Below, in pieces: positions 7,493 to 63,634 of a DNA stretch of 64,000 nucleotides. Below the pieces are notes generated by a model that was given only the letters and a program-made list of their open reading frames with translations, made no database searches and was not told the origin of the DNA. Both the position numbers and the translations under genes were made by a program. Numbering within the stretch: the first letter of the stretch is position 1; the number at the start of each line of letters is the position of its first letter. The stretch comes from Candidatus Saccharimonadales bacterium (GTDB lineage Bacteria > Patescibacteriota > Saccharimonadia > Saccharimonadales > JACQNP01): NCBI GenBank assembly GCA_038257245.1, contig JBBSJL010000003.1, forward strand, positions 2,074-66,073, written 5' to 3'.

Positions 7493-7567
7493 TTACTCAA
7501 TTATACATTGTATTGCGTTGTTTTTTTTAAATGGCCAATACCAGTTATAAAAGTTATCATTATAGCT

Positions 7568-16491: not shown

Positions 16492-17973
16492 ATGGAAAAA
16501 TCGACAAACCTAGAAGTTATTGATCGGCCTGAACATCAGGGTATTATTGAAGCTTCGGAAATTGTCGATAGGCTAGGCATAGAACAACTTGCCTGCGAGC
16601 TAATCGAAAACAGAGATAAAATCGAAAATGTGGCTGTTCCTCGTCAAGAGCGTGAAGATAATGCACGTACGGCACTTATGGAGGCGCTAACTGCGTCAGG
16701 GCACCTCTCTAGAGTTGAATTAACGGGTAGCTTAGAGGAAATTAATGCTCAAGTACTGTCGCGATTGCTAAATGGTTGGAGTGACAACCTAAACCCTCAC
16801 GAAAAACAAAGGCGTTTTGTTGAGCTTTGTAATGAACTAACAATCCAAGAGGTGCATAGATGCATTGAAGCAGGCATGTTACCAGAATCTGTAGAACTAA
16901 CGGAGATTTCTGACTACCCAATGGCATTATCTGACAAGCAAGCGGAAAGATTGGGTTATCGACCAGAAAATAAAAAAGGCATGGTACGTACAACAGGACT
17001 CGTAAAGAACAGTGGCGGTACATACACAAGAGTTATCGAACAGGTTAGCAGAAGCAGTGCTGATTCCAGTAGTACATTTGAATTTATGCAATCAGCCGAC
17101 CTAGATGGTAGCTCCGCTCAGCTACTTGATGTAGAAGCACTGGGCAGGCCGCTACTAACCAGCACAGTAGATTACGCAGATGGAGTTATTGATATTCAAA
17201 GAAGGCTGGATAAACATTCGGGTGGTCATATATATGGTGAAAAACCAGGCCCAAACCAAATTCCATATGAGGATTTACGCGAAGAGTCTTTTAGAAGAGA
17301 GCGACGTATTGAATTTTATACAACTAACCTAGCAGATTTTGAAACAAGACTAGACCAAGCATACATAGGCGGGCTTATATCCAAAAAAGAGAAGGACAAT
17401 CAGTTCAAACAAGAAGTTAGGGCAATATTAGAAGCTATTTGTACGTTAACCCCAGAATATGCAGAGGATTGTTTTGGTGGGAAAGCTGCTGCAACTTTTT
17501 TTGAGGCATCAAATCTAGCTGCAGCCGGGCAACTAGAAATGGCCAGGCAACTTATTCATGATAACCGCGACCTGCAGAAACCAATAGTTTTTTGTGGGAT
17601 GTCTATTTCACCAGAAAAAGCCAAGGAATTAGGGCTAAATATAAGTGAAACAGGTGATTTGATTTCCGAAGGGAAAGAAAAGATGAAGTTTAAACCTGGG
17701 GTTTGTAGAATTAAGTCTTGCGCCAAGAAAACAGACGTGGGGCCTTGTAGCATATGTCGCAATTGCCAGTCTAGGTTTGATAAAGGCGACGACCCAACTT
17801 TAGATATTGTTAGTTCTTCAAAGACGACTCAAGAAGATCCAGGCACCAAAACGTTAGATGCAATATTTCACTATAGTGATGTCGATAAAGAACCACACGA
17901 CATTATCGAACAAGAACGAGTGGATGCCAATACTTCAAAAGAAGAAACATATAAAACACCAGTGGCTGTATAA
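16492..17973 (+). CDS. Hypothetical soluble 493-aa protein with a C-terminal Cys4 zinc-ribbon-like motif
   Basis: Long clean ORF with no TM segment. CRIKSC-x9-CSICRNC near the C-terminus. I recognise no family. Confidence 0.75.
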   Translation: MEKSTNLEVIDRPEHQGIIEASEIVDRLGIEQLACELIENRDKIENVAVPRQEREDNARTALMEALTASGHLSRVELTGSLEEINAQVLSRLLNGWSDNLNPHEKQRRFVELCNELTIQEVHRCIEAGMLPESVELTEISDYPMALSDKQAERLGYRPENKKGMVRTTGLVKNSGGTYTRVIEQVSRSSADSSSTFEFMQSADLDGSSAQLLDVEALGRPLLTSTVDYADGVIDIQRRLDKHSGGHIYGEKPGPNQIPYEDLREESFRRERRIEFYTTNLADFETRLDQAYIGGLISKKEKDNQFKQEVRAILEAICTLTPEYAEDCFGGKAAATFFEASNLAAAGQLEMARQLIHDNRDLQKPIVFCGMSISPEKAKELGLNISETGDLISEGKEKMKFKPGVCRIKSCAKKTDVGPCSICRNCQSRFDKGDDPTLDIVSSSKTTQEDPGTKTLDAIFHYSDVDKEPHDIIEQERVDANTSKEETYKTPVAV

Positions 17974-17981
17974 TCATACGA

Positions 17982-40959: not shown

Positions 40960-41000
40960 TACTGATAGTATATATAAGAAGTTAGGAGATTGGAATAAGC

Positions 41001-43693: not shown

Positions 43694-43740
43694 ACAGATA
43701 GATTACAGCGAATACGGTTAATCGTCCAGAGAGGATATTC

Positions 43741-47509: not shown

Positions 47510-47607
47510 GCAGAGTTTATTGTCTCACAAAACGACAAATTTATTGAGTGTATTTTAACAGGAAAGACGCCGTTGTAAATATTGACTATCTGTGGTATAA
47601 TATAGCA

Positions 47608-48162
47608 ATGAATTACAAAGAAGTTGATGGCGAAATATTACCATCCTACAGCCCAGATGGAAACGGCAACCAGCCATATTACCCAAAACCAGACACAGAA
47701 ATGCCTGATTCCTTTCATGGTGAATCAGCTGAAGTTGCTGATAGTGCCGAAGTAATTGATCTAACAGCCAGGAGAACAGCCGGAGAGGTTGCTGACTCGA
47801 AAGCTCGTCATCCTGGATTGCCTGACCAGTTACCAGGCATTGATATGACAGACACGCAGTCAACCATGCCAATTGGTAGTGTTGATGAAAAGTCATCTGC
47901 TAGAGGACGTCATCCAACAGCATTTGTGCCTGAACCTAAGGAGGAAGCGGGAGGTGATAATCCTAGAAAAAGAAAAAAGGTTGTAGAATTGCCAGGCCAA
48001 AGGAATAATGGCCGCACAAATGGACCAGGAACCCCTACGCGTGCTGAGATTCAAAAAGGTTTAAGTTTTGAAGAGATCAGAAGGCGTGATCGTAATAATA
48101 AGGCAGGTGCAGCTTTGGCAAGAGAAGCAATAAAGAATGCATTATCTACTGAAGAAGAGTAG
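47608..48162 (+). CDS. Disordered acidic/basic protein, unknown function (leaderless start)
   Basis: TGGTATAAT (47593-47601) lies 6 nt before the ATG at 47608. The track start at 47548 is an upstream GTG. Confidence 0.5.
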   Translation: MNYKEVDGEILPSYSPDGNGNQPYYPKPDTEMPDSFHGESAEVADSAEVIDLTARRTAGEVADSKARHPGLPDQLPGIDMTDTQSTMPIGSVDEKSSARGRHPTAFVPEPKEEAGGDNPRKRKKVVELPGQRNNGRTNGPGTPTRAEIQKGLSFEEIRRRDRNNKAGAALAREAIKNALSTEEE

Positions 48163-50726: not shown

Positions 50727-50799
50727 AAGATGTGAATGTTATGGTTAGCTAAGGTTAACAGATGAGAGTATACCAGCAAAGTGCTATAATTATCTAGTT

Positions 50800-51243
50800 A
50801 TGCTTGAAAAAATAAACAAATCTATCAAAGATCCACGCGTGCAACAGTTCAAGGACGTTCGCGTTATCAGTTTAGTGGTCTTTGGGGTGATTGTTTTGTT
50901 GGTTTCTTGGAGTAGTGTAAACGTAATCCAAACCAACTATGATTTACAAAAGCAGATCGCAAAACTGGAACAACAAAACGAAGTAAAGAGCCTAAAGAAT
51001 GAGAACCAAAAACTTCGCAACCAGTTTTACGACACGGACCAATTTCTAGAATTACAGGTTAGGCGAAACTTCGGCAAGGCTGCACCGGGCGAAACTTTAG
51101 TGTTAGTACCTAAAGATGTGGCTTTATCAAAAACTGTAGCAAAACCGGAGGAGCCAAAACAAAGTGAGACTCAAACACCAAACAAACCAACTTACCAAAG
51201 AAATTTTGAAACATGGGTGGATTTCTTCTTGCACAGAACCTAG
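50800..51243 (+). CDS. FtsB/DivIC-like septum formation initiator
   Basis: N-terminal TM helix followed by a leucine-zipper-like coiled coil (LQKQIAKLEQQNEVKSLKNENQKLRNQ). TGCTATAAT lies 9 nt before the ATG. Confidence 0.6.
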   Translation: MLEKINKSIKDPRVQQFKDVRVISLVVFGVIVLLVSWSSVNVIQTNYDLQKQIAKLEQQNEVKSLKNENQKLRNQFYDTDQFLELQVRRNFGKAAPGETLVLVPKDVALSKTVAKPEEPKQSETQTPNKPTYQRNFETWVDFFLHRT

Positions 51244-51284
51244 ACACGAAAAAGTCGAAGAGACGTTAATGTATAGTATCCCTT

Positions 51285-52511
51285 ATGACAGAGACTAAAA
51301 AGAATTTGTCCAAACGATTTCGACCATTGTACTTTTCGGCGTTTTTCCATGGTTTTGTTCTTTGGTACGCCATTGAAAAAATATTTATGAAAACTATAGG
51401 ATTTAATGACGTCACCATCGGGGTAATGATTGCTTTCTACTCTGCGATAGTGTTGGTTGCAGAAACACCGTCTGGCATATTAGCAGATAGGTGGAGCAGG
51501 AAAGGTGTCCTCATTATTGCTAGTATCTTCTTGTCGCTGAGTGCTCTTATTGGTGGATTGAGCCAGGGCGTATTGTCTTATTTAGTTGCTGCAGGTTTTT
51601 GGGGAGTATTCTTCGCATTGTATTCAGGGACTTACGAAACAATAGTTTATGACACTGTGCGCGAAGAAACTAAGTCCGGAGATTTATACGAACATTACTA
51701 TGGTAAAGTAACAATTTTTGATAGTTCAGCATTAGTTATTGGTTCAATAATAGGTGGGCTAGTCGCAAACTTTGCAGGATTAAATATGGCATACTTTTTA
51801 TCTGTACCGATGGGTATCGGCTCTATTGCGGCTCTAATGCAATTCAAAGAGCCTCAGCTACATAAAAACCACGCTCCAGTATCATTGCGAGAACAGGTCA
51901 GCGATACATTCAGATCTGTATTGCAAAAAGGAGACCTACCTCCCGTGTTAGTAGTATTAGTTGCAACCTCTGCATTAACATTTTTAATCTTTGAATTTAG
52001 TCAATTATGGACTATTGCGCTACTTATACCACTAATATGGTTTGGGCCGGTTAATGCCCTTCACTTGTCTTCGATAGGAATTGGAGGGGCACTCGTCTCC
52101 AGATTCAGGCTTAATAGGCAAGCAGCACTGATGGGGCTTTTGGTGGTACTTGTGGTTAGTTGTTTGGCTCTGACATTGTCTCGGAATAAGTTAGTAGTTG
52201 TCTTTGCTATATTTTTTGCCAGTATTTGCTTGATAAGCATAAGCATAATATTTAGTAAGCTTTTACATGATAGATTAGATTCAAAAGTTAGAGCAGGTGC
52301 GGCGTCAGCAATTAGTACACTGGGGCGAATGATTATTATTCCAGTCTCGATAGTATTCGGGTACATAAGTAGTAAAACCAGAGAACAGATCATTACCCCT
52401 CAATATATTGTAGATGTAATATATCCCGTCGCGAAAGCTGGTTCCAACATTTTCGGCAAATTTGGAGTTTGGGCTAAAAATCCAAATTATCTTGCAGTTA
52501 TAGAAAATTGA
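51285..52511 (+). CDS. MFS transporter
   Basis: About 12 helices with a GILADRWSRKG loop 2-3 motif. TATAGT lies 7 nt before the ATG. Confidence 0.75.
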   Translation: MTETKKNLSKRFRPLYFSAFFHGFVLWYAIEKIFMKTIGFNDVTIGVMIAFYSAIVLVAETPSGILADRWSRKGVLIIASIFLSLSALIGGLSQGVLSYLVAAGFWGVFFALYSGTYETIVYDTVREETKSGDLYEHYYGKVTIFDSSALVIGSIIGGLVANFAGLNMAYFLSVPMGIGSIAALMQFKEPQLHKNHAPVSLREQVSDTFRSVLQKGDLPPVLVVLVATSALTFLIFEFSQLWTIALLIPLIWFGPVNALHLSSIGIGGALVSRFRLNRQAALMGLLVVLVVSCLALTLSRNKLVVVFAIFFASICLISISIIFSKLLHDRLDSKVRAGAASAISTLGRMIIIPVSIVFGYISSKTREQIITPQYIVDVIYPVAKAGSNIFGKFGVWAKNPNYLAVIEN

Positions 52512-52540: not shown

Positions 52541-52569
52541 TTGACAATCTCACCTCTGTTTGCTACTAT
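52541..52569 (+). promoter_or_regulatory. Sigma-70-type promoter upstream of the tRNA-fMet leader
   Basis: TTGACA (52541-52546), a 17-nt spacer, then TACTAT (52564-52569). Confidence 0.5.
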
Positions 52570-52751
52570 TACCTGGCTAAACAGCGATGGAGGAACTTAC
52601 GGGTTCCTCCAAAAGCAAATTTGCAGTTTGTTTAAATATTGTGAGAGGGTTCACAATATTTGGAGGAGATGGCTTGGTGAGTTCGGCGCTGATGATCAGA
52701 AATTCATTTTGTGATCATCTAGGTGAACTAACCGTCACACATCGACGATGA

Positions 52752-52826
52752 CGCGGGGTAGAGCAGCGGCAGCTCGTCTGGCTCATAACCAGAAGGTCGC
52801 AGGTTCGAGTCCTGCCCCCGCTACCA
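52752..52826 (+). tRNA. Initiator tRNA-fMet (anticodon CAU)
   Basis: CGCGGGG TA GAGC AGCGGCA GCTC G TCTGG CTCATAA CCAGA AGGTC GCAGG TTCGAGT CCTGC CCCCGCT A CCA. It has a C1xU72 mismatch and A11:U24, and its acceptor and D-stem are nearly identical to E. coli tRNA-fMet. Confidence 0.9.
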
Positions 52827-52865
52827 AGCATAAGCATTATGACCTCTAGAAATAGAGGTCTTTTC
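52821..52865 (+). repeat. Junction repeat copy A (tail only; overlaps the last 6 nt of tRNA-fMet)
   Basis: CTACCAAGCATAAGCATTATGACCTCTAGAAATAGAGGTCTTTTC is identical to the tails of copies B and D. The hairpin spans 52841-52860, followed by a T-run. Confidence 0.9.
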
Positions 52866-52888
52866 ATTCGTTTTGTTATTATTAAGTT

Positions 52889-53491
52889 ATGAAGGTCAAC
52901 TATAGTCCAGAGCAAGTTGCTGCTCAGTTTCGTAATTGTGGCAGAAGGTGGTGGATTGCGGGAGGATGGGCAATAGACTACTACCTAGGGAAGGTCACTC
53001 GTGAACACGAGGATGTCGATGTAGCCATTTTAAAAAGTGACGAGAAGGCATTTCGTAGCTACATGCAAGACTGGGAAATATGGCCTGGATTAGGCGATAA
53101 CAAATTAGAAGATAAACCGATAAGGATCGATGAGGCACTTTCGGAAGAACGAGGTGTGCTATGGTGCCGTCCATCCCCTGCAGACGAATGGGCCTTTGAA
53201 CTGTTACTCAATCCAACCAAGGGTAGCGAGTGGGTGTTTAAGCGAGACGAGAGAATACGAAAACCGTTAGATAGACTCGGGTCTGTTACTGACGACGGTA
53301 TTCCATATCTAAATCCAGAAATTGTACTTTTATTTAAAGCCAAAAATAATCGGGAAAAAGATCAGCAAGATTTTGAAACTGTAATACCAATGCTTGGCGA
53401 AGACGCAAGAAGGTGGCTACGTCACTCAATACAGATTGTTCATCCTGATCACCCCTGGCTAACTGCGCTGTGTTCAACTCCTACTGCCTAG
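52889..53491 (+). CDS. ANT(2'')-like nucleotidyltransferase (aminoglycoside 2''-adenylyltransferase family fold)
   Basis: WWIAGGWAIDYYLGKVTREHEDVDVAI parallels the LWIGGGWAID..LGRVTRKHDDIDL motif of ANT(2'')-Ia as I recall it. The last ~7 codons run into repeat copy B. Confidence 0.65.
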   Translation: MKVNYSPEQVAAQFRNCGRRWWIAGGWAIDYYLGKVTREHEDVDVAILKSDEKAFRSYMQDWEIWPGLGDNKLEDKPIRIDEALSEERGVLWCRPSPADEWAFELLLNPTKGSEWVFKRDERIRKPLDRLGSVTDDGIPYLNPEIVLLFKAKNNREKDQQDFETVIPMLGEDARRWLRHSIQIVHPDHPWLTALCSTPTA

Positions 53492-53630
53492 ACCCTACAG
53501 GGGATTCCTCCCTAACCTCATTCACTATCTCCCACATACCTATCAGTTCTCGTTTAATAAGGTTCCATTTCGTCAAAGGCATGCCTACCAAGCATAAGCA
53601 TTATGACCTCTAGAAATAGAGGTCTTTTTT
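53471..53630 (+). repeat. Junction repeat copy B (full: head, body, tail)
   Basis: The last 111 nt differ from copy D at 1 position by manual alignment. The hairpin spans 53605-53624, followed by a T-run. Confidence 0.9.
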
Positions 53631-53653
53631 GTTGGCTTTGGTATGATGTCTTT

Positions 53654-54205
53654 ATGAAAAATGCAATTCTATTACATGGTTCTGGCGGAAGTAGCGTAGA
53701 CTACTTTTGGTTTGAAGATACTAAGAGGCACCTTGAATCATTAGGTTACGAAGTATGGTGGCCACTATTGCCGAATACTGATAGTCCAAAACTAATTGAG
53801 ACCCGTGACTATATAGAACAAAATATGCCCAGTATTGACGAACAAACAGTTATTATCGCTCATTCATCTGCATGCCCTTTAATTCTCCATATGATGCAAT
53901 ATTTTAAGGTTAGAGTACGGCAAGTCATTCTAGTATCAGGATATTACCAGTCTATATCTGGAGAATCGAATAACATGTTACCCGAAAGTTTCGATTGGGA
54001 CGAGATTAAGCAACATGCGGAAGAGATAATACTAATAAACTCCGATAATGACCCCTGGGGTTGTAATGACAAACAAGCACGACCTGCTGCGGAAAAACTA
54101 GGTGCGAAGTTTATATTCGCTAAAGAGCAGGGTCATATGGGCTCAGGGACATATAATCAACCTTATAGAAAGTTTGAGCTGCTTAATTCACTACTACCAA
54201 GTTAG
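53654..54205 (+). CDS. YdeN/RBBP9-type serine hydrolase
   Basis: MKNAILLHGSGGS start and an AHSSAC nucleophile region. TGGTATGAT lies 6 nt before the ATG at 53654. The track start at 53603 sits inside the repeat hairpin. Confidence 0.7.
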   Translation: MKNAILLHGSGGSSVDYFWFEDTKRHLESLGYEVWWPLLPNTDSPKLIETRDYIEQNMPSIDEQTVIIAHSSACPLILHMMQYFKVRVRQVILVSGYYQSISGESNNMLPESFDWDEIKQHAEEIILINSDNDPWGCNDKQARPAAEKLGAKFIFAKEQGHMGSGTYNQPYRKFELLNSLLPS

Positions 54206-54223
54206 TTTGTTATAATCCAAAAC

Positions 54224-55174
54224 ATGGATATCAAAGATACTAACGTTCATAATAGCGGCATGCTTGATGTGGGTGATGGACATAAGCTTTATTGGGAAGA
54301 TTGGGGCAATCCTAAATCAACACCAATTATGCACTTTCATGGTGGCCCAGGCGGCGGCTTTAGCGATAGTCATAAGTTAATGTTTAACGCTCAAAAACAC
54401 AGGGTAATTTTTTATGACCAAAGAGGTTCGGGTAAGAGCACGCCCTATGCGTCAACTAAAGATAATACAACGCAAAAACTAGTAGAAGATGCAGAGAAGC
54501 TACGTAAACACCTTAAGATAGATAAGATGCACCTTGTTGGTGGTTCTTGGGGCTCAACAATGACATTAGCGTATGCAATGGCTTACCCAGATAATGTTAA
54601 AGCCATGGTTATGTGGGGCATATATCTAACTAGGCAGTTTGAAAATGACTTAATTGCAGCTGGATATGCAAAATATAACTATCCTGAAGCATGGGAACGG
54701 TTTATATCGCTAGTACCTGAAGAGCATCGAAAAGACGGTGACTCTATAACAAGATACTATTCAGGCAAGATAAACTCTAAAAATACTAAAGAGGCAATTC
54801 AGTATGCTGATGAGTGGACACTATGGGAGTGCACATTACTGTCCGTAAACTATGATAAAGCTAAACTAGAACTCGATGTTATAAAAGGCGATGATAGTAA
54901 CCTAGCTATTGCAAGATTAGAAACACATTATTTTATTAACGATTGTTTTATGCCAGGAAACTATTTGTTAGATAACATAGGTAAAATAAAACACATTCCT
55001 AGTTATGTTGTTCAGGGTAGATTTGATAACTGCACACCTCCAATTACTGCGTATGAACTAAGTAAGTCATATGGCAAAAACATGACTTTGCAGTTTGTAA
55101 ATGGTGGCCATAGACGTAGTGACCCAGAAGTACTTGCTGCCTTAAGAGCAGCTGTAAACACGACCTTAGTCTAG
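54224..55174 (+). CDS. pip: Prolyl aminopeptidase (proline iminopeptidase, S33)
   Basis: HGGPGGG, YDQRGSGKS and GGSWGSTM motifs. TGTTATAAT lies 7 nt before the ATG. Confidence 0.85.
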   Translation: MDIKDTNVHNSGMLDVGDGHKLYWEDWGNPKSTPIMHFHGGPGGGFSDSHKLMFNAQKHRVIFYDQRGSGKSTPYASTKDNTTQKLVEDAEKLRKHLKIDKMHLVGGSWGSTMTLAYAMAYPDNVKAMVMWGIYLTRQFENDLIAAGYAKYNYPEAWERFISLVPEEHRKDGDSITRYYSGKINSKNTKEAIQYADEWTLWECTLLSVNYDKAKLELDVIKGDDSNLAIARLETHYFINDCFMPGNYLLDNIGKIKHIPSYVVQGRFDNCTPPITAYELSKSYGKNMTLQFVNGGHRRSDPEVLAALRAAVNTTLV

Positions 55175-55180
55175 TGCTTT

Positions 55181-55205
55181 AAGCTCTAGAAATGGAGGTC
55201 TTTTT
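55181..55205 (+). repeat. Junction repeat copy C (hairpin-only variant)
   Basis: AAGCTCTAGAAATGGAGGTCTTTTT, followed by the same TTTGTTATGATTAAGTTATGAA leader as after copy A. Confidence 0.75.
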
Positions 55206-55229
55206 ATTTGTGTTTGTTATGATTAAGTT

Positions 55230-55955
55230 ATGAAATCGAATAGTCATCCGGTTACACAGCAGTATCAGCCTACAAATACAACCTGTAGTCCAACAGCACT
55301 TTCGACACTACTTGGGCACTACGGGAATAAGATAAGTCCACTGGACGTTGAAGCGAAGGTTCCACAGTCTATAAATGATAAGGGTGAAAAGATAGGCACT
55401 ATAAATCAACAATTAGCTACATGGTGTTTAACTAGAGGATACAACGTGACACTCTATACTTTCGATTGTCAGATAATAGATCAATCATGGGGTAAGCTCG
55501 AGACAAATAAACTGATTGAACGTATGAAATTGCGAAAGAATGGGTGGGTCGTTCCGGGCATGGGCGAAGAGTGGACAAAACGATACACACAAGCTTATAT
55601 TGATTTTATTATTGCTGGCGGTAAATTACATATACAGCCTGCAGTAACAACCGTACTACTTTACGATCTATTGAAGACAGGCCCTTTCTTGCCATGTGTG
55701 AGCTACAGCACTTTATATGGTGAAGCTCGTTCGAGGAATATTGGGGAAATTGAAGTTGTTACTGATGATGTAAATGGTAGAGCAACTAACCACTCGATTG
55801 TCGTATATGGCAATGATGAGTCGGGTAATTTCGTGATTGCGGACTCTTGGAAGAAACCAGGCCTTCACACTATTGAGCCCGAGAGATTACTTGCGGCAAT
55901 AAGCACGGCACAGATTGAGTGTGATAACCTGCTATTCCAAATACAACCTAAGTAG
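55230..55955 (+). CDS. Peptidase C39-like (papain-fold) cysteine peptidase domain protein
   Basis: QQYQPTNTTCSPTALSTLLGHYG fits the Q...N.C.P.A....L..YG motif, and NHSIVVYG is a candidate His. TGTTATGAT lies 6 nt before the ATG. Confidence 0.55.
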   Translation: MKSNSHPVTQQYQPTNTTCSPTALSTLLGHYGNKISPLDVEAKVPQSINDKGEKIGTINQQLATWCLTRGYNVTLYTFDCQIIDQSWGKLETNKLIERMKLRKNGWVVPGMGEEWTKRYTQAYIDFIIAGGKLHIQPAVTTVLLYDLLKTGPFLPCVSYSTLYGEARSRNIGEIEVVTDDVNGRATNHSIVVYGNDESGNFVIADSWKKPGLHTIEPERLLAAISTAQIECDNLLFQIQPK

Positions 55956-55962
55956 AAGTATT

Positions 55963-56120
55963 GGTTCAAGTCCTACTGCTTAGACTGAAACAGGGCTTCC
56001 TTCCTAATATCATTCACTATCTCCCACATACCTATCAGTTCTCTTTTAATAAGGTTCCATTTCGTCAAAGGCATGCCTACCAAGCATAAGCATTATGACC
56101 TCTAGAAATAGAGGTCTTTT
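55963..56120 (+). repeat. Junction repeat copy D (full)
   Basis: Head GGTTCAAGTCCTACTGCTTAGAC, a body, and a tail identical to copy A. The hairpin spans 56097-56116. Confidence 0.9.
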
Positions 56121-56230
56121 CATTTTATAACTATTTGCCAGGGAGCTGCTACCTAGTTAACCGTTATCCTTTTAACAACATTGAGAGTATAATTGAAGGT
56201 ACACAAAGTGGAATAATCTAGGAGCTAAAT

Positions 56231-56638
56231 ATGACAGATATTAAACAAACCGTAACAGAGACCGAAGATAGTGGTAATAATGAAGTCGGAGCAGCTGTCC
56301 GGCAGAAAACTAAACAAATCCATACTGAATCAGCGGCAGACAGTAAAACAACTGCACAAAACATCGTTTGGTACATACTGGGTGTTTTGGAAGTCGTTTT
56401 GGCAATTAGATTTGTTCTCAAACTCCTAGGAGCAAACTCTGCGAACGCATTTGTTGATTTAACTTATTCTATTAGTGGAATTATTACTGCGCCCTTTGAT
56501 AGCATATTCGGCGTAACAAGCACCACTACAGGTGATACTAATTCTGTGTTTGAACCTTCAATAATTGTTGCCGGGTTAGTCTATATGTTGATAGCGTGGG
56601 GAGTCGTCAAGCTGATCACTATTAACCAAAAGCAGTAA
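56231..56638 (+). CDS. YggT-like two-helix membrane protein
   Basis: TAGGAG SD. The IRFVLKLLGAN....ITAPFDSIFG pattern resembles the YggT repeat. Confidence 0.45.
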   Translation: MTDIKQTVTETEDSGNNEVGAAVRQKTKQIHTESAADSKTTAQNIVWYILGVLEVVLAIRFVLKLLGANSANAFVDLTYSISGIITAPFDSIFGVTSTTTGDTNSVFEPSIIVAGLVYMLIAWGVVKLITINQKQ

Positions 56639-56660
56639 CTATAATAAGGTAAGGCGTCGA

Positions 56661-56888
56661 ATGAAATATTACAAAAAACGCATTGAAGATGTACTAAAAA
56701 GACCACGAAGTCTTATTTCAAAAGTTAACTTCCGTCGCTATCTTACAAACGTTAACGAGCCGGCAGAAAATATATCAGAATTACGGCTACCAGAATCAAA
56801 AATTCGAAAACACGACAAGATAGATTCTGCACGGCAAAGGGTTGGGATTCGTAAACTTGCTAAAAAACTAAGACTTAGAAGTAAGTAG
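56661..56888 (+). CDS. Small highly basic protein, unknown function
   Basis: 75 aa, K/R-rich, with a weak SD (TAAGG). Confidence 0.4.
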   Translation: MKYYKKRIEDVLKRPRSLISKVNFRRYLTNVNEPAENISELRLPESKIRKHDKIDSARQRVGIRKLAKKLRLRSK

Positions 56889-56941
56889 ATTAAAGCTAGA
56901 TGTTGATTATTATTTCATATATAGCTACCCGCATTAAATAG

Positions 56942-58651
56942 ATGAATTTTGTTAAAACAGCATTGTTGAATATACGACTAGTTCTGGTCCTACTTGGAGT
57001 AGTATTTTTAGGTTCTATAGCTTACAGCCAACTAAAAGGAAGCCAAGATTTTGCTGATATTATAAATGGGCATGACTGGACCCACTTTGCTGGAGCAACA
57101 CAAACCCAAAGTGGTATCCAAATATCTCCACTGAATAAAGAAATCATTCACCAAGACGGATCAAAAGCACAGCTAAATCCACCCTTAAACGTCCGTGGTC
57201 CTCATTTGGCAGTCTCTGGAAACTTTGAAGTTAAGGCTAACATGGATGGCATAGAAGACGGGGCTTCGTTACAATTTTACAGCCAACCGCCAGTTATATA
57301 TGACGAATGGCGACAAGAGCACCCAAGCATTAGAATTGATATATCTGCCAACAGCGTAGAAGCGCGTATATGGGACGGTAACTCATCAACACCAATGGAC
57401 ATTCGTAGTTTTAATGTGAACTTAAATGGGCCAACGAAGCTAGATCTTAAGCACGAAGACGGACAGATAGCTCTGGCAGTAAACAGCCACGAGCTTGGGT
57501 CTATGCCAGATCATAATATATTTGCTGGTGGGACGGTTTGGTTTGGGTTAGACGGAAACGATAAAGGGGATGGCTGGATACTACGTGACCTTAGGGCACA
57601 TCCTCTTGGTAAAGATAGCTTGGATGTTATAGCCGTAACTTCTCTAACTGTTGACCACAATGACGCAAACTTACTACGTAATCTAATTGATAAACAGTCT
57701 CGCAAAATACAAATTGGCGTGGCAGTGTCGGTAAACCCTCTATACACCGATGAAGCATACAAGAATATTGCCATGAGCCAGTTTAATTTAGTAACCACAG
57801 AGAGTAGTTTAAAGGCCCAATTTATTCATCCAGCACCTGATAAATATAACTTTACCGAAGCGGATAATATTATTGCTATGGCGGAGGCTAACGGCCAGGC
57901 AGTTCACGGGCATACTTTGATCTTTGCTAAGTCTAATCCATCGTGGATGACAGATACACCCGAAGACAAGTTGGCTGGCGTCATGACAGACCATACAACT
58001 AATGTTGTCAAACATTTTAAAGGTCGTATTGGTTCGTGGGATGTTGTTAATGAACCTATGTCCGAAAAGGACGAAGATTATACAAACGGGAATCTAGGCT
58101 TACGACAGCATTTTTGGTTCAAAGCTATGGGCGAACAATACATCGACAAAGCATTTAAAGCGGCACGAGCGGCTGACCCAACTGCAAAACTATATTTGAA
58201 TGATTACGGTATCGAGCATGATGGCATGCGATGGCAAGCATTCTACACACTCGTGCAACGTCTTCAAGCTCGTGGTGCCCCAATTGACGGTGTTGGGTTT
58301 GAATCTCATGTCTACCAGACCACGGACAAAATTGATCTGACAATATTAAGAGCGCATATAAAAGCAATTGCCGATTTGGGGCTAAGTGTCCGAATATCGG
58401 AAATAGATGTTTTGGGAGATGAACCACAATTTCAGAGCCAGCAGTACAGCGATGTATTGGCTGTTTGTTTAAGTGAACCTAGCTGCTCATCATATACCAC
58501 CTGGGGTGTATCGGACTTATATGGTTCTACAACTATTTCTGAACGATATCCACTATTGCTAGGTGATAGTTTACTGTGGGACAAGGATATGCAACCCAAA
58601 TCAGCTTTTTTTGAACTTCAGAAAGTGCTTAAGAACAACCAGGTGCAGTAA
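56942..58651 (+). CDS. Membrane-anchored glycoside hydrolase family 10 (endo-beta-1,4-xylanase-like) with an N-terminal beta-sandwich-like domain
   Basis: Signal-anchor helix, a ~200-aa unassigned domain, then a GH10 domain with GHTLIF, WDVVNEP (acid/base Glu) and ISEIDV (nucleophile Glu). Confidence 0.8.
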   Translation: MNFVKTALLNIRLVLVLLGVVFLGSIAYSQLKGSQDFADIINGHDWTHFAGATQTQSGIQISPLNKEIIHQDGSKAQLNPPLNVRGPHLAVSGNFEVKANMDGIEDGASLQFYSQPPVIYDEWRQEHPSIRIDISANSVEARIWDGNSSTPMDIRSFNVNLNGPTKLDLKHEDGQIALAVNSHELGSMPDHNIFAGGTVWFGLDGNDKGDGWILRDLRAHPLGKDSLDVIAVTSLTVDHNDANLLRNLIDKQSRKIQIGVAVSVNPLYTDEAYKNIAMSQFNLVTTESSLKAQFIHPAPDKYNFTEADNIIAMAEANGQAVHGHTLIFAKSNPSWMTDTPEDKLAGVMTDHTTNVVKHFKGRIGSWDVVNEPMSEKDEDYTNGNLGLRQHFWFKAMGEQYIDKAFKAARAADPTAKLYLNDYGIEHDGMRWQAFYTLVQRLQARGAPIDGVGFESHVYQTTDKIDLTILRAHIKAIADLGLSVRISEIDVLGDEPQFQSQQYSDVLAVCLSEPSCSSYTTWGVSDLYGSTTISERYPLLLGDSLLWDKDMQPKSAFFELQKVLKNNQVQ

Positions 58652-58660
58652 GAACAAACT

Positions 58661-58818
58661 GGTTCAACTACTACCGCCTAGGCTGCAACAGGGCTTCTCT
58701 CCTAACTTCATTCACTATCTCCCACATACCTATCAGTTCTCGTTTAATCTGGTTCCAATTCGTCAAAGGCATGCCTACCAAGCATAAGCACTAAGACCTC
58801 TGTAAAAAGAGGTCTTTT
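58661..58818 (+). repeat. Junction repeat copy E (full, diverged)
   Basis: About 8 mismatches to copy B over the last 111 nt. Hairpin variant GACCTCT gtaaaa AGAGGTC followed by TTTT. Confidence 0.85.
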
Positions 58819-58850
58819 ATATTTTGTTAGTAAAGACTACAAAATAAGTG

Positions 58851-58879
58851 TTGACATGCTATTTATGATTTGGTAAATT
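58851..58879 (+). promoter_or_regulatory. Sigma-70-type promoter of an apparently non-coding unit
   Basis: TTGACA (58851-58856), a 17-nt spacer, then TGG-TAAATT (58871-58879). Confidence 0.45.
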
Positions 58880-58885
58880 ATTTCT

Positions 58886-59028
58886 CGGAAGACCGAGTGA
58901 AACAGCACAAGTTCGTTAATATGTATCCGTTCAAGTTAGTAAAGTTCGAAGTTTGTTAGTTCGTAGGATACATCTGTGGGTGCTAGTCTTCCCCAGTACA
59001 AAGAGGCACAGAACGTGCCTCTTTTCAT
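58886..59028 (+). ncRNA. Candidate ~140-nt small RNA or cis-regulatory leader
   Basis: Bounded by the promoter above and the terminator AAGAGGCAC agaac GTGCCTCTT TTCATTT (59001-59030). An internal 7-bp stem TGTATCC/GGATACA (58922-58972) encloses AGTT(C/A/T)G repeats. No plausible ORF. Confidence 0.3.
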
Positions 59029-59185
59029 TTGGTTCTATTGCTCACAGGTGCTGCATCAAACACTAGTTTTCATCTGTTCGAATCTTCAAACAAAACGTTC
59101 CAATTCGACAAACCTAGATACTTATAAATACAGTCTACTTAATAGTTGGAGTAATTTGTCCTCATTTTTGGTATATTTGATTGAT

Positions 59186-59752
59186 ATGCAACATTTAGTT
59201 ATAGATTGTACAAAACCGAAGGATAAAGATTTCAATTCCCGACTATACAGGTACCTAGATATTATTGCTGACTACGACGTAGTTAATATTGAAGAGATAG
59301 GCGAGAGCACATTAGGTAAATATAAGACAATAATAATTACAGGTGTTCCAGTAACCTACCCGCTAGATTCCATATATGAAACAGCCAAAAGGTTAGAATG
59401 TATTAAAAGTGTGAATATCCCTGTGCTAGGAATATGTCTTGGTCATCAGGTAATAGGAGTACTATTTGGCTCTAAAATTTATGAGCACGGTGAAGCTGAG
59501 CATGGGGATAGAAAGGTCACCATAGTTAACGATGACAAAATATTCAAAGACATGTCGCATGAGTTTCATGCCCAAACACTTCATACGGCATCAGTAAGTT
59601 TGCCCCATTCGTTCAAACACTTAGCTAAATCCTATAGTTGTCATAATGAATCGATGAAACATAAAGAAAAGGATATTTATGGCTTTCAATTTCACCCAGA
59701 GTTTAAGGAATCATCCAGAGCAGTAATAAGAAACTTCATACTATTGAATTAG
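59186..59752 (+). CDS. Class I glutamine amidotransferase domain protein
   Basis: PVLGICLGHQ (Cys nucleophile) and FQFHPE (His/Glu). TGGTATATT lies 8 nt before the ATG at 59186. The track start at 58976 (GTG) reads through the terminator. Confidence 0.7.
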   Translation: MQHLVIDCTKPKDKDFNSRLYRYLDIIADYDVVNIEEIGESTLGKYKTIIITGVPVTYPLDSIYETAKRLECIKSVNIPVLGICLGHQVIGVLFGSKIYEHGEAEHGDRKVTIVNDDKIFKDMSHEFHAQTLHTASVSLPHSFKHLAKSYSCHNESMKHKEKDIYGFQFHPEFKESSRAVIRNFILLN

Positions 59753-59820
59753 AAACAGCTTTCCACCTTTCCACCTTCCCAACTCCTAAAGCAGTAAGAT
59801 CCAATTAGAATGTACTTGGG

Positions 59821-59885
59821 CTACCAAGCATATTCACTATGGATTATAATAAGGAAGGTGTTTTAGCCTAGCTTTGTTATGATTA
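59821..59885 (+). repeat. Junction repeat copy F (scrambled/degenerate)
   Basis: CTACCAAGCATA (tail start) is fused to TTCACTAT (a body fragment), and TTTGTTATGATTA (the leader) is at 59873-59885. CAACTCCTA, a head-like fragment, lies at 59780-59788. Confidence 0.55.
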
Positions 59886-59893
59886 TGTAGTAT

Positions 59894-60316
59894 ATGAAAA
59901 CCACAAAAAGAAACCAAAATCTGTGTAGTAAGTCAGGTTTTACAATTGTAGAAGTGATGATTGTCCTCGCTGTGGCAGGTCTAATTGTATTAATTCTTTT
60001 CTTTGCCATTCCTGCTTTACAGCGGATGACACGAAATACACGTCGTGATAATGATGTTCAATTAATAGTCGCAGCGATTAATGAATGCGTACTGAATAAT
60101 AACGGCCAAATTGACGGCTGTCAGGCTTTCGGCAATATCCCTATAGATGCGTCTAATTTAAGTATTTTCTCTGGTGCTCATTATGGTGTTGATGCGTCGG
60201 GTAATTCTGTCGCACCAACAGAAGAAGAGCCAAACTGGCTTTTTAATTTAAGGTGTAATAGTGATGGAACTTGGTTTTTGTCTGATAACCCACAAAGAGC
60301 TTTCGTCGTTACTTAA
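59894..60316 (+). CDS. Type IV pilin-like protein (prepilin N-terminal cleavage/methylation motif)
   Basis: KSG|FTIVEVMIVLAVAGLIVLILF has the G-F-T-x-x-E motif and a hydrophobic helix. Cys residues are present in the C-terminal domain. Confidence 0.7.
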   Translation: MKTTKRNQNLCSKSGFTIVEVMIVLAVAGLIVLILFFAIPALQRMTRNTRRDNDVQLIVAAINECVLNNNGQIDGCQAFGNIPIDASNLSIFSGAHYGVDASGNSVAPTEEEPNWLFNLRCNSDGTWFLSDNPQRAFVVT

Positions 60317-60420
60317 GAAAGAGAAGTTGGGTCATCAATACGAAACAAATGTATAGATGGATAATTGATACGATAGTTATGGTTTAGTACAAAATAGCAA
60401 ACTAAAACATTACGATTCAT

Positions 60421-60484
60421 GGTTAAATTCCTACTACCTAAACCCCAACAGGCTTTCTTCTTAGTATCATTCACTATCTCCCAC
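60421..60484 (+). repeat. Junction repeat copy G (head plus first part of the body only)
   Basis: GGTTAAATTCCTACTACCTAAACCCCAACAGGCTTTCTTCTTAGTATCATTCACTATCTCCCAC. Homology stops at 60484, and no tail or hairpin follows. Confidence 0.75.
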
Positions 60485-60510
60485 CCATTTTGATTTGATA
60501 TACTGCATTT

Positions 60511-61155
60511 ATGAGCACGGACTACGACAAACAACACGAAACTGCTACTGATTACTCAATGTTTGAAGTGTCCAAAGAACACTATTCATGGAATGAAGGT
60601 TTAAAGACTAGCTTATTGATAGTTTTGGCCATCGGTTCTTCGTTAGCAATGTTTGCATTAGCGAAATATTTCCTTAATGCTCCGGATTGGATAGGTGCTT
60701 TCATCGGTTTTATCTTTATTGCTGGCTTATGGATCTCAGTGATCTACGCTTTGCTCAGTTTGTACAAAAAACTTAAAATAAACAGACAAGTTATTAAAAA
60801 GTTTGCAGATGTAAATGGCTGGAAATATATTGCTAAACCAGGCAAACCAGAAAAGATTGAGTTAAAAGCAGACTTAAGCTACGCAATAGATTTCTATATT
60901 CGATTCACTGTTGAAGGAAAAAAAGACGGTGTAAACTTTAAGTTATATCAGATAATGGAGGAGTCTCTATCTAGCAGACGAGGAAAAAGGCTTTACTCAA
61001 TTTATAATACGTTTCTGAGGGTAGAAAAAACATTTATAGCGGACCAAAATGATAAAGATACTAAGATAATCGAAGGAGCAAAATACAAATATATTAATTT
61101 GCAGGGCAATATAATATATCGCGATGATGCAATAAAACTGTTTGATTCAATATGA
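60511..61155 (+). CDS. Two-helix membrane protein with a C-terminal soluble domain, unknown function
   Basis: TGATATACT lies 6 nt before the ATG. There are two adjacent TM helices. Confidence 0.55.
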   Translation: MSTDYDKQHETATDYSMFEVSKEHYSWNEGLKTSLLIVLAIGSSLAMFALAKYFLNAPDWIGAFIGFIFIAGLWISVIYALLSLYKKLKINRQVIKKFADVNGWKYIAKPGKPEKIELKADLSYAIDFYIRFTVEGKKDGVNFKLYQIMEESLSSRRGKRLYSIYNTFLRVEKTFIADQNDKDTKIIEGAKYKYINLQGNIIYRDDAIKLFDSI

Positions 61156-61212
61156 CTTCGCTAACTACATTTTCAACCCCTAATTCTTGAACTATTTGGT
61201 ATCATCTAGTCA

Positions 61213-61773
61213 ATGGAAACTCTACTTTACTCCCTTATATTATTCTTTGGCATCGCTTCTTACATTATTGGCCTAAAGGAAATGCTAGTAGGCAAGTACT
61301 CACCTAGTGTGTTTAGCAGAGTGGTTTGGTTGCTTCTTGCCATCATTAGCACGGCCAGTGTTGTAGCAAGCCATAGTACCTCAGCATCAGTGATACTGGC
61401 ATTTGTATTCTTGCTTGGAAATGCGAGTATATGTATTGCAAGTTTTTGGAAGGGCACTAAGGAAACAGGTAAGTTAGAGTATATCTGTCTAGGCATATTA
61501 GTAGTAAGCAGCATGGTTTGGATAGTCTTCAATGCTCCTCTTGTCAGTTTAGTCATTAGTCTGTTAGCACATTTTGTTGGAGCAGTACCAACTTACAAAA
61601 GAGTATGGATAAGGCCGAGCAGTGAAAGTACTGGCTTCTGGTCTCTATTCTTTGTAGCTAGCTTGCTTAGTATTTTTGCTAGCTGGGGGCAGCCTCTGAG
61701 CCTAATCATTTTCCCAATATACTTCGCTTTGTTTGACGGGAGTATGACTTTCTTGTCTATGAGAAAAACATAA
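61213..61773 (+). CDS. Polytopic (about 6 helices) membrane protein, unknown function
   Basis: TGGTATCAT lies 7 nt before the ATG. The protein is hydrophobic throughout. Confidence 0.55.
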   Translation: METLLYSLILFFGIASYIIGLKEMLVGKYSPSVFSRVVWLLLAIISTASVVASHSTSASVILAFVFLLGNASICIASFWKGTKETGKLEYICLGILVVSSMVWIVFNAPLVSLVISLLAHFVGAVPTYKRVWIRPSSESTGFWSLFFVASLLSIFASWGQPLSLIIFPIYFALFDGSMTFLSMRKT

Positions 61774-61851
61774 GTTGCGAACACGAAGCTTGCGGAAACG
61801 CCGAAGTCGCTGTACTGAGCTCACCACCTCTATGATAAAATAACCAAAGCA

Positions 61852-62232
61852 ATGAATAATTTCTTAAACAAAGAAATTATTCTTCCCAAAAAGCTGAATA
61901 TATTTCTCTTTAATGTATATCCATTATTATTTTTGTTAATTACATATTTGAGTGCAATTTTATCTCTGTCGCTTTTGTTGTGGGTGCTTAGTGGAATATT
62001 TAACAAAGGTTTTATTAACAGTCCATTTGGAGCAGCGTACTTATTGATATTTATTGGTATATTAATCTTTACACCATTGGTTCTAATAGGTTTTGTTAGT
62101 TTGAAAAGAACATTCACACACAGCGACTATAATCGTTCAAATACTCAAAGACATATTGTAATCACAATGAATGGGTTATTCGTTATTTCATCCCTTGTTC
62201 TAACAATTATTAAAATCATTAACCTTGTTTAG
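61852..62232 (+). CDS. Small membrane protein (3-4 helices), unknown function
   Basis: Very AT-rich ORF. The opposite-strand ORF 61830-62117 is less hydrophobic-periodic. Confidence 0.4.
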   Translation: MNNFLNKEIILPKKLNIFLFNVYPLLFLLITYLSAILSLSLLLWVLSGIFNKGFINSPFGAAYLLIFIGILIFTPLVLIGFVSLKRTFTHSDYNRSNTQRHIVITMNGLFVISSLVLTIIKIINLV

Positions 62233-62315
62233 AATATGGATAGCGCCATTTATTTGGCCTAGCCGATGTATTTCTTAGGATGTTGTGATTAAACAAATTT
62301 GCTATAATTTGTAAC

Positions 62316-62672
62316 ATGTCATTACTTAAATTTAAAGTAACGAAAAACACACTGGTTTATATTTGGGCTATCTTAGTTTTCATATTCAGTTTAGTTTCAT
62401 ACGTATCTAATTTAGACAGTCCTGCCAGCCTGAACAAGTGGGAAGCGTATGTTGCTATTGGAATATTCTTATTTTTCGTGGGCTATGCATTAATATACTC
62501 TATCGATTTCATCATTCTCTTGCTTAAAAAGATTTTGAATCCCTCTAAATCTAGCGAGACTACCACCAGGTCAATAAATAATTATAAAAAGTTAATCTTA
62601 TTAATACTGGGTGGAGTAGCTTTATATTGGATAATTTTCGGGATTGCATTGCTGACAGGTATGGCTAATTAG
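62316..62672 (+). CDS. Small membrane protein (3 helices), unknown function
   Basis: TGCTATAAT lies 7 nt before the ATG. Confidence 0.45.
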   Translation: MSLLKFKVTKNTLVYIWAILVFIFSLVSYVSNLDSPASLNKWEAYVAIGIFLFFVGYALIYSIDFIILLLKKILNPSKSSETTTRSINNYKKLILLILGGVALYWIIFGIALLTGMAN

Positions 62673-62752
62673 CCAAAAGCGTAAATAGACTATTTTCATG
62701 AAGTAGCTTGATCAATAAAGGCCAAGTTGTACAAACCTACTCTTACTCCTAC

Positions 62753-62786
62753 GCTTATATTACCTCTAGAAATGGAGGTCTTTTTT
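62753..62786 (+). repeat. Junction repeat copy H (tail/hairpin variant)
   Basis: GCTTATATTACCTCTAGAAATGGAGGTCTTTTTT carries the same TGGAGGTC variant arm as copy C. Confidence 0.75.
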
Positions 62787-62842
62787 ATTTGCCACTTGCT
62801 CCTTTAAGGCTTATGCTTAATCTAACTAATACAAGGAATATT

Positions 62843-63634
62843 ATGAAAAAACTAAACACTAAAGGCTTCGGAGTAGTAGAATTAATTCTAATTATTGTTA
62901 TCTTCGGGCTAATAGGTGGCGTAGGTTACTACGTATACAACTCACAGAAGGAAACGAATACTTTATCTGGTAATAGTGATAGCGATAATGCAAAAAAATC
63001 TGACGAAAACTCCAATATAAAGTTATATGCGGACGAATATGCTGGGTACACCATTGAGTATCCAGTTAGTTGGCAAGTTGAAACCTCAAGTGAATATTCA
63101 GAAATTGGACAATCAGAAGTATCAACAACAAAACTTACTTCAGCAACTGGGCTCACACTTACATTTGAACACAACTTTGGTGGTAGAGGCGGTGATTGTC
63201 CTCCCGGTCCAAATGATAGCCCCCACGCTCCAGGAAACATATGCCAAACAAGCGAAATTATATTTGTAGAAAAAACTGGGAATACAGTCCTTGGTATTGA
63301 TGCTACCGTAGATGCACAATCACAAGGACGCTTCAAAGACTATGACCTCTACCTAGTTCGAGAAAAATATACAGACCCTGGCGCCTCTAACCCCAACACT
63401 GTCTACTTTAGCGGTCTATCAGTTGATACTTATTCAGATGTGGTAAAAGTATCGGAACCGAAAATGGGTCTATTTGTGCCATTCAGTATAATTTCGCAAT
63501 TTAGTTCACCGTCAGTATCAACAGGATATTACGTTGATATTAAGATGTCTCCAAAAGGCAATAGCGAGGAATTCTTTAACCAAGAGGATGTTAAACAAGC
63601 TGAAGCGATCTTAAAGAGTTTTCGCTTTAACTAG
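62843..63634 (+). CDS. Type IV pilin-like/pseudopilin-like protein with a large C-terminal domain
   Basis: The ATG at 62843 has an AAGGAA SD. KG|FGVVELILIIVIFGLIGGVGYY has the G-F-x-x-x-E motif. The track start at 62708 reads through repeat H. Confidence 0.6.
   Translation: MKKLNTKGFGVVELILIIVIFGLIGGVGYYVYNSQKETNTLSGNSDSDNAKKSDENSNIKLYADEYAGYTIEYPVSWQVETSSEYSEIGQSEVSTTKLTSATGLTLTFEHNFGGRGGDCPPGPNDSPHAPGNICQTSEIIFVEKTGNTVLGIDATVDAQSQGRFKDYDLYLVREKYTDPGASNPNTVYFSGLSVDTYSDVVKVSEPKMGLFVPFSIISQFSSPSVSTGYYVDIKMSPKGNSEEFFNQEDVKQAEAILKSFRFN

Follow-up and report, generated by a model that had tools for sequence, protein, structure and literature searches.

The window analysed here, that is the whole 64,000-nucleotide (nt) stretch of contig JBBSJL010000003.1 from a Candidatus Saccharimonadales bacterium, has a G+C content of 39% and belongs to the lineage Saccharimonadia (Saccharibacteria, in the Candidate Phyla Radiation, CPR). 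From the end of an initiator tRNA gene onwards it carries an array of 13 genes interspersed with repeats, and eight of these genes begin at an ATG located 6-8 nt after the box TGnTAnnnT. An earlier note on this DNA had listed the eight boxes as extended -10 promoters of leaderless messenger RNAs (mRNAs), and all eight are present exactly as written. The features of the array are the following (N6 meaning six nucleotides between box and start codon).

52752-52826, plus strand: tRNA-Met(CAT) gene of the initiator type (ARAGORN, Rfam); the array starts at its CCA end
52827-52864, plus strand: junction J0, with trailer AGCATAAGCATTAT, hairpin GACCTCTAGAAATAGAGGTC (52841-52860) and a T-run; terminator-like
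52874-52882, plus strand: box 1, TGTTATTAT, N6, ATG at 52889; ANT(2'')-like nucleotidyltransferase gene (52889-53491)
53472-53628, plus strand: copy a of the 157-nt repeat D1, with a T-arm-like start, the invariant GGTTCCATTTCG, CTACCA, trailer and terminator hairpin
53639-53647, plus strand: box 2, TGGTATGAT, N6, ATG at 53654; Ser_hydrolase gene (53654-54205)
54208-54216, plus strand: box 3, TGTTATAAT, N7, ATG at 54224; alpha/beta hydrolase gene (54224-55174)
55181-55204, plus strand: junction J2, a degenerate trailer with hairpin and T-run; its fold is weaker than those of the other junctions
55215-55223, plus strand: box 4, TGTTATGAT, N6, ATG at 55230; C39-like peptidase gene (55230-55955)
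55964-56120, plus strand: copy b of D1, including trailer and terminator and not followed by a box of the putative leaderless type
58662-58818, plus strand: D1 copy c, with trailer and terminator
59096-59107, plus strand: remnant of a degenerate D1 block, CGTTCCAATTCG, upstream of box 5
59169-59177, plus strand: box 5, TGGTATATT, N8, ATG at 59186; class-I glutamine amidotransferase gene (59186-59752)
59875-59883, plus strand: extra box, TGTTATGAT, N10, ATG at 59894; pilin-like gene
60440-60484, plus strand: partial D1, copy d, abutting box 6
60496-60504, plus strand: box 6, TGATATACT, N6, ATG at 60511; gene 60511-61155
61197-61205, plus strand: box 7, TGGTATCAT, N7, ATG at 61213; membrane protein gene (61213-61773)
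61833-61841, plus strand: extra box, TGATAAAAT, N10, ATG at 61852
62300-62308, plus strand: box 8, TGCTATAAT, N7, ATG at 62316; gene 62316-62672
62762-62784, plus strand: junction J7, hairpin and T-run only, then TTATGCTTAA and a gene at 62843 led by a Shine-Dalgarno (SD) sequence

Among the 13 array genes, TGnTAnnnT is found at N6-8 in eight, where shuffling of each gene's 60-nt upstream region (5000 times) gave an expectation of 0.10 and a maximum of three; ten of the 13 are boxed when N10 is counted. The rest of the window has the box at N6-8 in 2 of 58 genes (Fisher p = 5e-6), and in the spacing profile of all window genes N6 occurs six times and N7 three times, most other spacings occurring 0-1 times. 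The earlier statement that the array uses this design almost exclusively therefore holds for eight genes, or ten with N10, and is otherwise overstated, one array gene having a clear SD and a leader of ~30 nt. The gene at 56231, the next after D1 copy b, has TATAAT at 56188-56193 and the SD TAGGAG.

All eight array starts are ATG, with T or C at position -1 in seven of the eight sites, and none of the 6-8-nt spacers contains GGAG, GAGG or AGGA, in keeping with the earlier remark that no room is left for an SD. Upstream of the array boxes 1-4 of the 6 positions of TTGACA are matched, like random positions, and a conventional two-hexamer promoter scan of the window returned 28 sites against 36 expected from shuffles. 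Canonical -35/-10 promoters were thus rejected for the array, and the random-like -35 scores combined with the two-hexamer deficit fit the extended -10 class. Four predicted 5' ends were folded and the 5' AUG was unpaired in all four, which is weak evidence.

Pfam domains begin 2-17 residues from the N-terminus in the nucleotidyltransferase, the Ser_hydrolase, the C39-like peptidase and the glutamine amidotransferase (GATase), and the alpha/beta hydrolase has the usual ~30-residue extension ahead of its domain, so that domain onset lies near the proposed N-terminus in five of the eight boxed array genes. The remaining three boxed ATGs are the first start codon of their open reading frames (ORFs). 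Longer mechanically called ORFs at 53603, 58976 and 47548 cross terminator hairpins or have no signal, those at 53603 and 58976 being the ones that would traverse hairpins. Because of the domain onsets, the hairpin-crossing of longer ORFs and the first-in-ORF ATGs, the boxed ATGs are credible as starts and appear to be the best ones.

The junctions between the genes are partly repeated DNA. The tRNA end CTACCA with its 38-nt trailer and hairpin recurs at 53585, 56077 and 58775 and, in degenerate copies, at 55161, 59821 and 62758; the full 157-nt D1 is found at three junctions, with partial copies at 60440 and 59096. The repeat hairpins fold with -13.4 to -14.7 kcal/mol (z -3 to -4.5; J0, -13.4 kcal/mol, z = -3.9) and are followed by T-runs. 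At 52861, 53626, 55202 and 59868 (J0, J1, J2 and J5) the repeat includes the box and continues to ATGAA, so that boxes 1, 2 and 4 are paralogues of one another and of the N10 box at 59875, whose spacer is 4 nt longer than in boxes 1 and 4. Boxes 3, 5, 7 and 8 are independent in sequence and box 6 abuts a D1 fragment. The eight sites are thus real but do not represent eight independent events, three to four of them being paralogous copies. Likewise, back-to-back junctions of terminator, promoter and ATG, which had been proposed for all eight, are seen at 52889, 53654 and 55230 only, and the gap from hairpin and T-run to box at these three measures 13-14 nt instead of the 15-25 nt given before. 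At the other five the junction is lacking: box 3 begins 3 nt past the preceding stop codon with no hairpin ahead, remnants of degenerate repeats but no hairpin precede 59186 and 60511, and neither repeat nor hairpin is found at 61213 and 62316.

Comparisons were made with 80 related loci (1.22 Mb), found with the Dus protein of the window (best 72% identical) and nearly all from metagenome-assembled genomes of Saccharibacteria/Saccharimonadales. Measured from TGnTAnnnT to the first ATG of ORFs of >=100 aa, the spacing in these relatives is N6 in 105 cases, N7 in 36, N8 in 26, N9 in 27 and N10 in 12, over a background of ~3.5. The enrichment of motif-to-ATG spacing that the earlier note had proposed to look for is hence found both in the window (8 against 0.10) and in the relatives (105 against ~3.5 at N6), and what it had called an organism-wide option is correctly named and extends to the whole lineage. 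The 203 matches of the relatives at N6-9 represent 117 protein families, 93 of them singletons, and the signal is therefore not produced by a few orthologous genes counted repeatedly, an explanation which is thereby ruled out. An artefact of the method is likewise ruled out by an Escherichia coli control, as in 100 kb of this genome the SD peak was normal while the box did not occur anywhere at N2-15.

The geometry of these sites resembles that of a promoter. With the A of ATG as +1, the 190 genes of the relatives with TAnnnT at N6 have a TATAAT-like hexamer, T at -15 and G at -14 (58% each), T at -35 (40%), T at -34 (39%), G at -33 (43%) and a pyrimidine at -1 (79%). As read from these frequencies, the layout is the canonical arrangement of a sigma-70 promoter and its predicted transcription start site (TSS), and it matches the start sites of Mycobacterium tuberculosis, a purine with a pyrimidine at -1 (PMC3898074). 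The TGn extension is present in ~55% of the lineage cases and in ~90% of those on contigs carrying cassettes. Starts after the box are ATG in 177 cases, GTG in 13 and TTG in five, and those after GGAG are ATG in 98, GTG in 14 and TTG in 13. Genes of the relatives lying <=15 nt behind a gene on the same strand have TAnnnT at N6-8 in 12% and a 4-nt SD core in 32%, whereas those with a larger gap or a divergent neighbour have the box in 33-50% and the SD core in 3-15%; the gene table of the window agrees with this contrast between first and operon-internal genes. Because the box is depleted before operon-internal genes and the SD shows the opposite pattern, the box is best taken as a promoter and not as a ribosome binding site.

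Taken together, the boxes are probably sigma-70-type extended -10 promoters from which transcription would begin on the A of the ATG or 1-2 nt ahead of it when RNA polymerase starts, giving leaderless mRNAs. The leaderless reading of the earlier note is thus supported, every prediction tested at the level of sequence having held. As an extended -10 element, TGnTAnnnT would need no -35 element, and the resulting mRNAs would lack both a 5' untranslated region and an SD, their translation beginning at a 5'-terminal AUG. This would be a general habit of the Saccharimonadia, in which about one third of the genes that are first in their unit appear boxed and operon-internal genes would use an SD or coupling. 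In the array, the shared junction would run from a tRNA-like CCA end through the conserved trailer, the hairpin terminator and the extended -10 to N6 and the ATG, where the terminator may insulate the unit from the tRNA and from the upstream unit, and a signal of ~15 nt may restart expression after it. The array is rich in boxes because it is built of small units of one to three genes, several of which have this junction in common. What the sequences themselves show is the motif with its spacing and enrichment, the promoter-like geometry, the restriction to first genes and the return of the motif at homologous junctions of other genomes; from these patterns we infer the actual TSSs, the efficiency of the terminators and the leaderless translation.

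Several points weigh against this account. The T-runs have just 4-6 T, so some read-through is possible, and as three to four of the eight boxes are situated within repeats, their conservation could partly serve recombination instead of transcription. Sites at N7 and N8 may yield leaders of 1-2 nt instead of none, and the N10 spacing at 59875 implies a predicted leader of ~3-4 nt. In orthologues of the DivIC-like gene at 50800 (53 loci) TATAAT is kept 9-15 nt before the ATG without an SD, and this N9-N15 spacing shows that SD-less leaders, short by prediction (~2-8 nt), are also used in the lineage. The 80 related loci moreover represent one syntenic region rather than whole genomes, and genes were called by a heuristic (longest ORF, first ATG).

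The role of the repeats leads to a different explanation, namely that the boxes in the repeated junction (52874, 53639, 55215, 59875 and perhaps 60496) are conserved as a recombination or attachment site and resemble promoters incidentally. Consistent with this, the repeat reaches through the box to ATGAA in J0, J1, J2 and J5, and TGTTAT(T/G)ATTAAG..ATG is common to unrelated ORFs in other contigs. However, the boxes at 54208, 59169, 61197 and 62300 are outside the repeats, the boxes and spacers of other contigs differ after the shared hairpin and still conform to TGnTAnnnT-N6-ATG, and the same rule governs 117 unrelated families away from the repeats. An attachment function to the exclusion of a promoter is accordingly unlikely, the two roles being in any case compatible.

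Extended -10 promoters also have to be weighed against a translation signal other than an SD, binding S1 or acting as an unstructured enhancer, on leadered or polycistronic transcripts that cross the hairpins. The box lies at the same 6-8-nt distance as a ribosome binding site, as has been noted for M. tuberculosis (PMC6028130); the short T-runs point the same way, as does the ATG at 54224, located just 18 nt behind the previous gene. The distribution of the box, 12% before operon-internal genes against 33-50% before first genes, is nevertheless the reverse of that of a ribosome binding site, and TG at -15/-14, TTG at -35 and the pyrimidine at -1 are features of promoters; stable hairpins with T-runs furthermore precede three of the boxes. 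Such a signal is for these reasons quite improbable. Chance matches in AT-rich intergenic DNA, which the 39% G+C and the 3052 copies of TAnnnT (both strands) could suggest, are refuted by the shuffles (0.10 expected, 8 observed), by the sharp N6-N7 peak over a flat background and by the lack of such a peak in E. coli, and are next to inconceivable.

A Pribnow box 6-8 nt away from where the first genes of operons begin is known from the literature as the signature of leaderless transcription (PMC6028130, GeneMarkS-2 group C; PMC3160421, 'TA-led' genes), and TSS mapping has confirmed it in M. tuberculosis (PMC3898074) and Deinococcus deserti (PMC4007540). The architecture described here is therefore of a known kind. 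The leaderless genes of Actinobacteria and Deinococcus-Thermus are alike in having TAnnnT 6-8 nt before the starts of first genes; as in group C and the TA-led genes, first genes are without an SD and operon-internal genes keep theirs, about one quarter to one third of the units are affected, and the TSS context is a pyrimidine at -1 and a purine at +1 (PMC3898074). In M. tuberculosis the accessory toxin-antitoxin modules are mostly leaderless, akin to the accessory cassettes here. Compared to Actinobacteria, the box of the window lineage is AT-rich (consensus TATAAT), and the TGn extension, at ~55% in the lineage and ~90% in the cassettes, contrasts with 7% in M. tuberculosis (PMC3898074). 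In the literature searched, no report was found that connects Saccharibacteria, TM7, CPR or Patescibacteria with leaderless mRNA, and the array thus appears to be a case of the known leaderless (group C) architecture in a lineage for which no report was found.

Extended -10 (TGn) sigma-70 promoters include the '-16 TRTG' region of Gram-positive bacteria. The boxes resemble this class in having TG one base upstream of the hexamer, no usable -35 and a T-rich stretch before the TG (TTTGnTA), and differ in being fused to the start codon, the discriminator being the sole sequence between box and AUG.

Saccharibacteria are ultrasmall episymbionts with reduced ribosomes. Should TSS mapping confirm the prediction, they would be, alongside Actinobacteria and Deinococcus-Thermus, a further lineage rich in leaderless genes. 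A set of TSSs for TM7x reportedly exists, and existing TM7x RNA-seq data would allow a direct check of the leaderless prediction. Gene-start calling in CPR metagenome-assembled genomes would be affected, as the ORF calls of the window at 53603, 58976 and 47548, which extend wrongly upstream, illustrate. The motif TTTGnTATaAT-N6-ATG may in addition offer a portable 15-nt expression signal for new genetic systems in Saccharibacteria, and the junction of terminator, promoter and ATG suggests a route by which horizontally acquired single genes could be both insulated and expressed in tiny genomes.

Outside the array, the following sites of the same design are present in the window.

7500-7505, minus strand: TATAAT, N7, ATG at 7492; absent from the earlier note
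17969-17974, plus strand: similar site
40967-40972, minus strand: similar site
43700-43705, minus strand: similar site
47593-47601, plus strand: TGGTATAAT, N6, ATG at 47608
50782-50790, plus strand: TGCTATAAT, N9, ATG at 50800; DivIC-like gene
51272-51277, plus strand: TATAGT, N7, ATG at 51285; MFS transporter gene

The three outside examples cited earlier (47608 at N6, 50800 at N9 and 51285 at N7) are exact, as are the SD examples at 23009, 48201 (a TTG start) and 56231. Plain TAnnnT at N5-9 is found in eleven further non-array genes, including those starting at 7492 (minus strand), 17982, 40959 (minus strand) and 43693 (minus strand). In the divergent pairs 40959/41001 and 43693/43741 the start codons are just 41 and 47 nt apart, a distance into which two leaders cannot fit; of the two genes of a pair, one is boxed (-10 at N5-7) and its partner is led by an SD.

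The array also bears on how its genes may have been acquired. Cassette-like loci comprise 52826-62800 of the window and, in relatives, L092 (1-4700, minus strand), L097, L005 (13640-15300), L014 (15830-16540) and L085, and the junction anatomy consists of an end resembling D1 (invariant GGTTCCAWTTCG followed by C[T/A]ACCA), the trailer AGCATAAGCATTATGACCTC and a hairpin. A 23-nt trailer pattern matched 23 metagenome contigs, in which the trailer comes after the CCA of tRNA-Gly(GCC), tRNA-Lys(CTT) or tRNA-fMet or after a D1-like end, and at least 12 junctions in these contigs proceed from the hairpin to TGnTAnnnT-N6/7-ATG and an ORF; over the 77 kb that they make up the box spacing is N6 in 19 cases, N7 in two and N8 in one. 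A C39-like homologue in L089, 35% identical, has the same layout of trailer, hairpin and TGATATGAT-N6-ATG. The relatives conserve the order tRNA-Met (minus strand), DivIC, tRNA-fMet (plus strand), and several have TGnTAnnnT-N6-ATG immediately after the tRNA terminator. A second array built in the same way is present in L092. The last D1...CTACCA of both L092 and L097 adjoins the native trailer of tRNA-fMet, and in L009 and L003, which represent empty sites, the native trailer directly follows tRNA-fMet; read in this way, the two pairs are a comparison of putatively occupied with empty sites. When recurrence of the tRNA 3' end together with 40 nt was looked for by a strict test, L014 and L076 were the only relatives to show it.

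The array looks like a set of small integrase-less cassettes that would have been inserted at tRNA CCA ends, the left end consisting of a terminator followed by a leaderless promoter. No recombinase domain was detected in the array ORFs or the five genes upstream, the window genes scanned, nor in ten ORFs of L092, L093 and L103. A phage origin of the junction was rejected, as viral contigs contain neither the trailer pattern nor that of D1.

Like an integron, the array is a series of small accessory cassettes, mostly of one gene, which encode a resistance-like nucleotidyltransferase, hydrolases and a peptidase, with a repeated junction element between them and no recombinase inside them. Unlike an integron, it shows none of IntI, attI and Pc among the array ORFs and five upstream genes scanned, a tRNA gene stands at its head, D1 lacks the long imperfect hairpin of attC, and the cassettes bring promoters and terminators of their own with no reliance on Pc. 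Islander-type tRNA islands, which use a tyrosine integrase (PMC4383910), are similar in their insertion at tRNA 3' ends, the direct repeat GCTACCA, the native trailer beyond the last repeat in relatives and the existence of empty sites. They differ in that the units here are 0.7-2.7 kb with no integrase gene found, the duplicated tRNA segment is ~7 nt, and the same left-end module follows tRNA-fMet, tRNA-Gly(GCC) and tRNA-Lys(CTT).

It is conceivable, though we hold it only tentatively, that these loci represent a system, no description of which was found, of integrase-less units of 0.7-2.7 kb inserting precisely at Saccharimonadia tRNA CCA ends, with D1 (GGTTCCAWTTCG ... C[T/A]ACCA) as the right end and, as the left end, a replacement tRNA terminator fused to an extended -10 that starts transcription at the ATG, the leaderless design letting a cassette work wherever it has landed. 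If true, the signal of a cassette would take up ~15 nt and be independent of the anti-SD sequence of the host. The proposed cassette system is a more novel lead than the leaderless feature.

As regards D1 itself, an attC-like hairpin or structured RNA was rejected, since no significant fold was found when it was folded as single-stranded DNA (z = -1.4) and neither conservation nor covariation of structure extended beyond the short terminator hairpin; Rfam families other than the tRNA are absent from 52.5-59.25 kb. A minus-strand ORF of 33 codons in D1 (MPLTKWNLIKREL..., MPLTKWNLIKRELIGMWEIVNE...; 53484-53582, 55976-56074 and 58674-58772) was also discarded as a gene. Similar stretches in L017, L038, L005, L033 and L002 are short open frames without start codons, and for that reason the ORF is probably conserved DNA rather than a gene.

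Two further sequences recur. TTATGCTTAA, with TATGCT as its -10, is a second promoter-like motif after the junction hairpin, at 62811-62820 of the window and in L082, L085 (near 880), L101, L102, L014 (near 16560) and L092; it lies 6-9 nt before genes whose products start with MNK or MKK, or ~25 nt before them with an AAGGA SD. The conserved sequence TTGGTCACGAGCCAAGATTCGGTTCTGGG... follows the native tRNA-fMet terminator in many relatives, as in L003 (12860-12960), L009, L008, L092 (minus strand, ~1400-1650) and L097 (190-300), and has no copy in the range of the window. ARAGORN detected no tRNA or tmRNA in this region, and Rfam, run on L003 and L092 only, gave nothing.

The tRNA-Met at 52752-52826, as read from its sequence, has the 5' end CGCGGGG, a C1-U72 mismatch and the 3' end CCCCGCTACCA, and its anticodon stem has just two of the three usual consecutive G-C pairs. 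Upstream of it (52541-52751) lies a promoter with TTGACA, 17 nt and TACTAT with TG, 180 nt before the tRNA, and three hairpin-forming stretches are seen by eye in between; this segment may represent a long structured leader of the pre-tRNA or a small RNA in its own right. A second segment, 58851-59032, is a candidate small RNA that matches nothing in Rfam: behind a full promoter (TTGACA, 17 nt, TAAATT with TG) come ~145 nt of non-coding DNA with a fold of -42.9 kcal/mol (z = -3.5) and, at their end, a strong terminator (59000-59024). Finally, a 1868-nt Logan contig (L104) from run SRR19962009 encodes exactly the alpha/beta hydrolase of the array (54224-55174) and shows 100% tblastn identity to the two array genes adjoining it, which points to the presence of the organism of the window in that sample.

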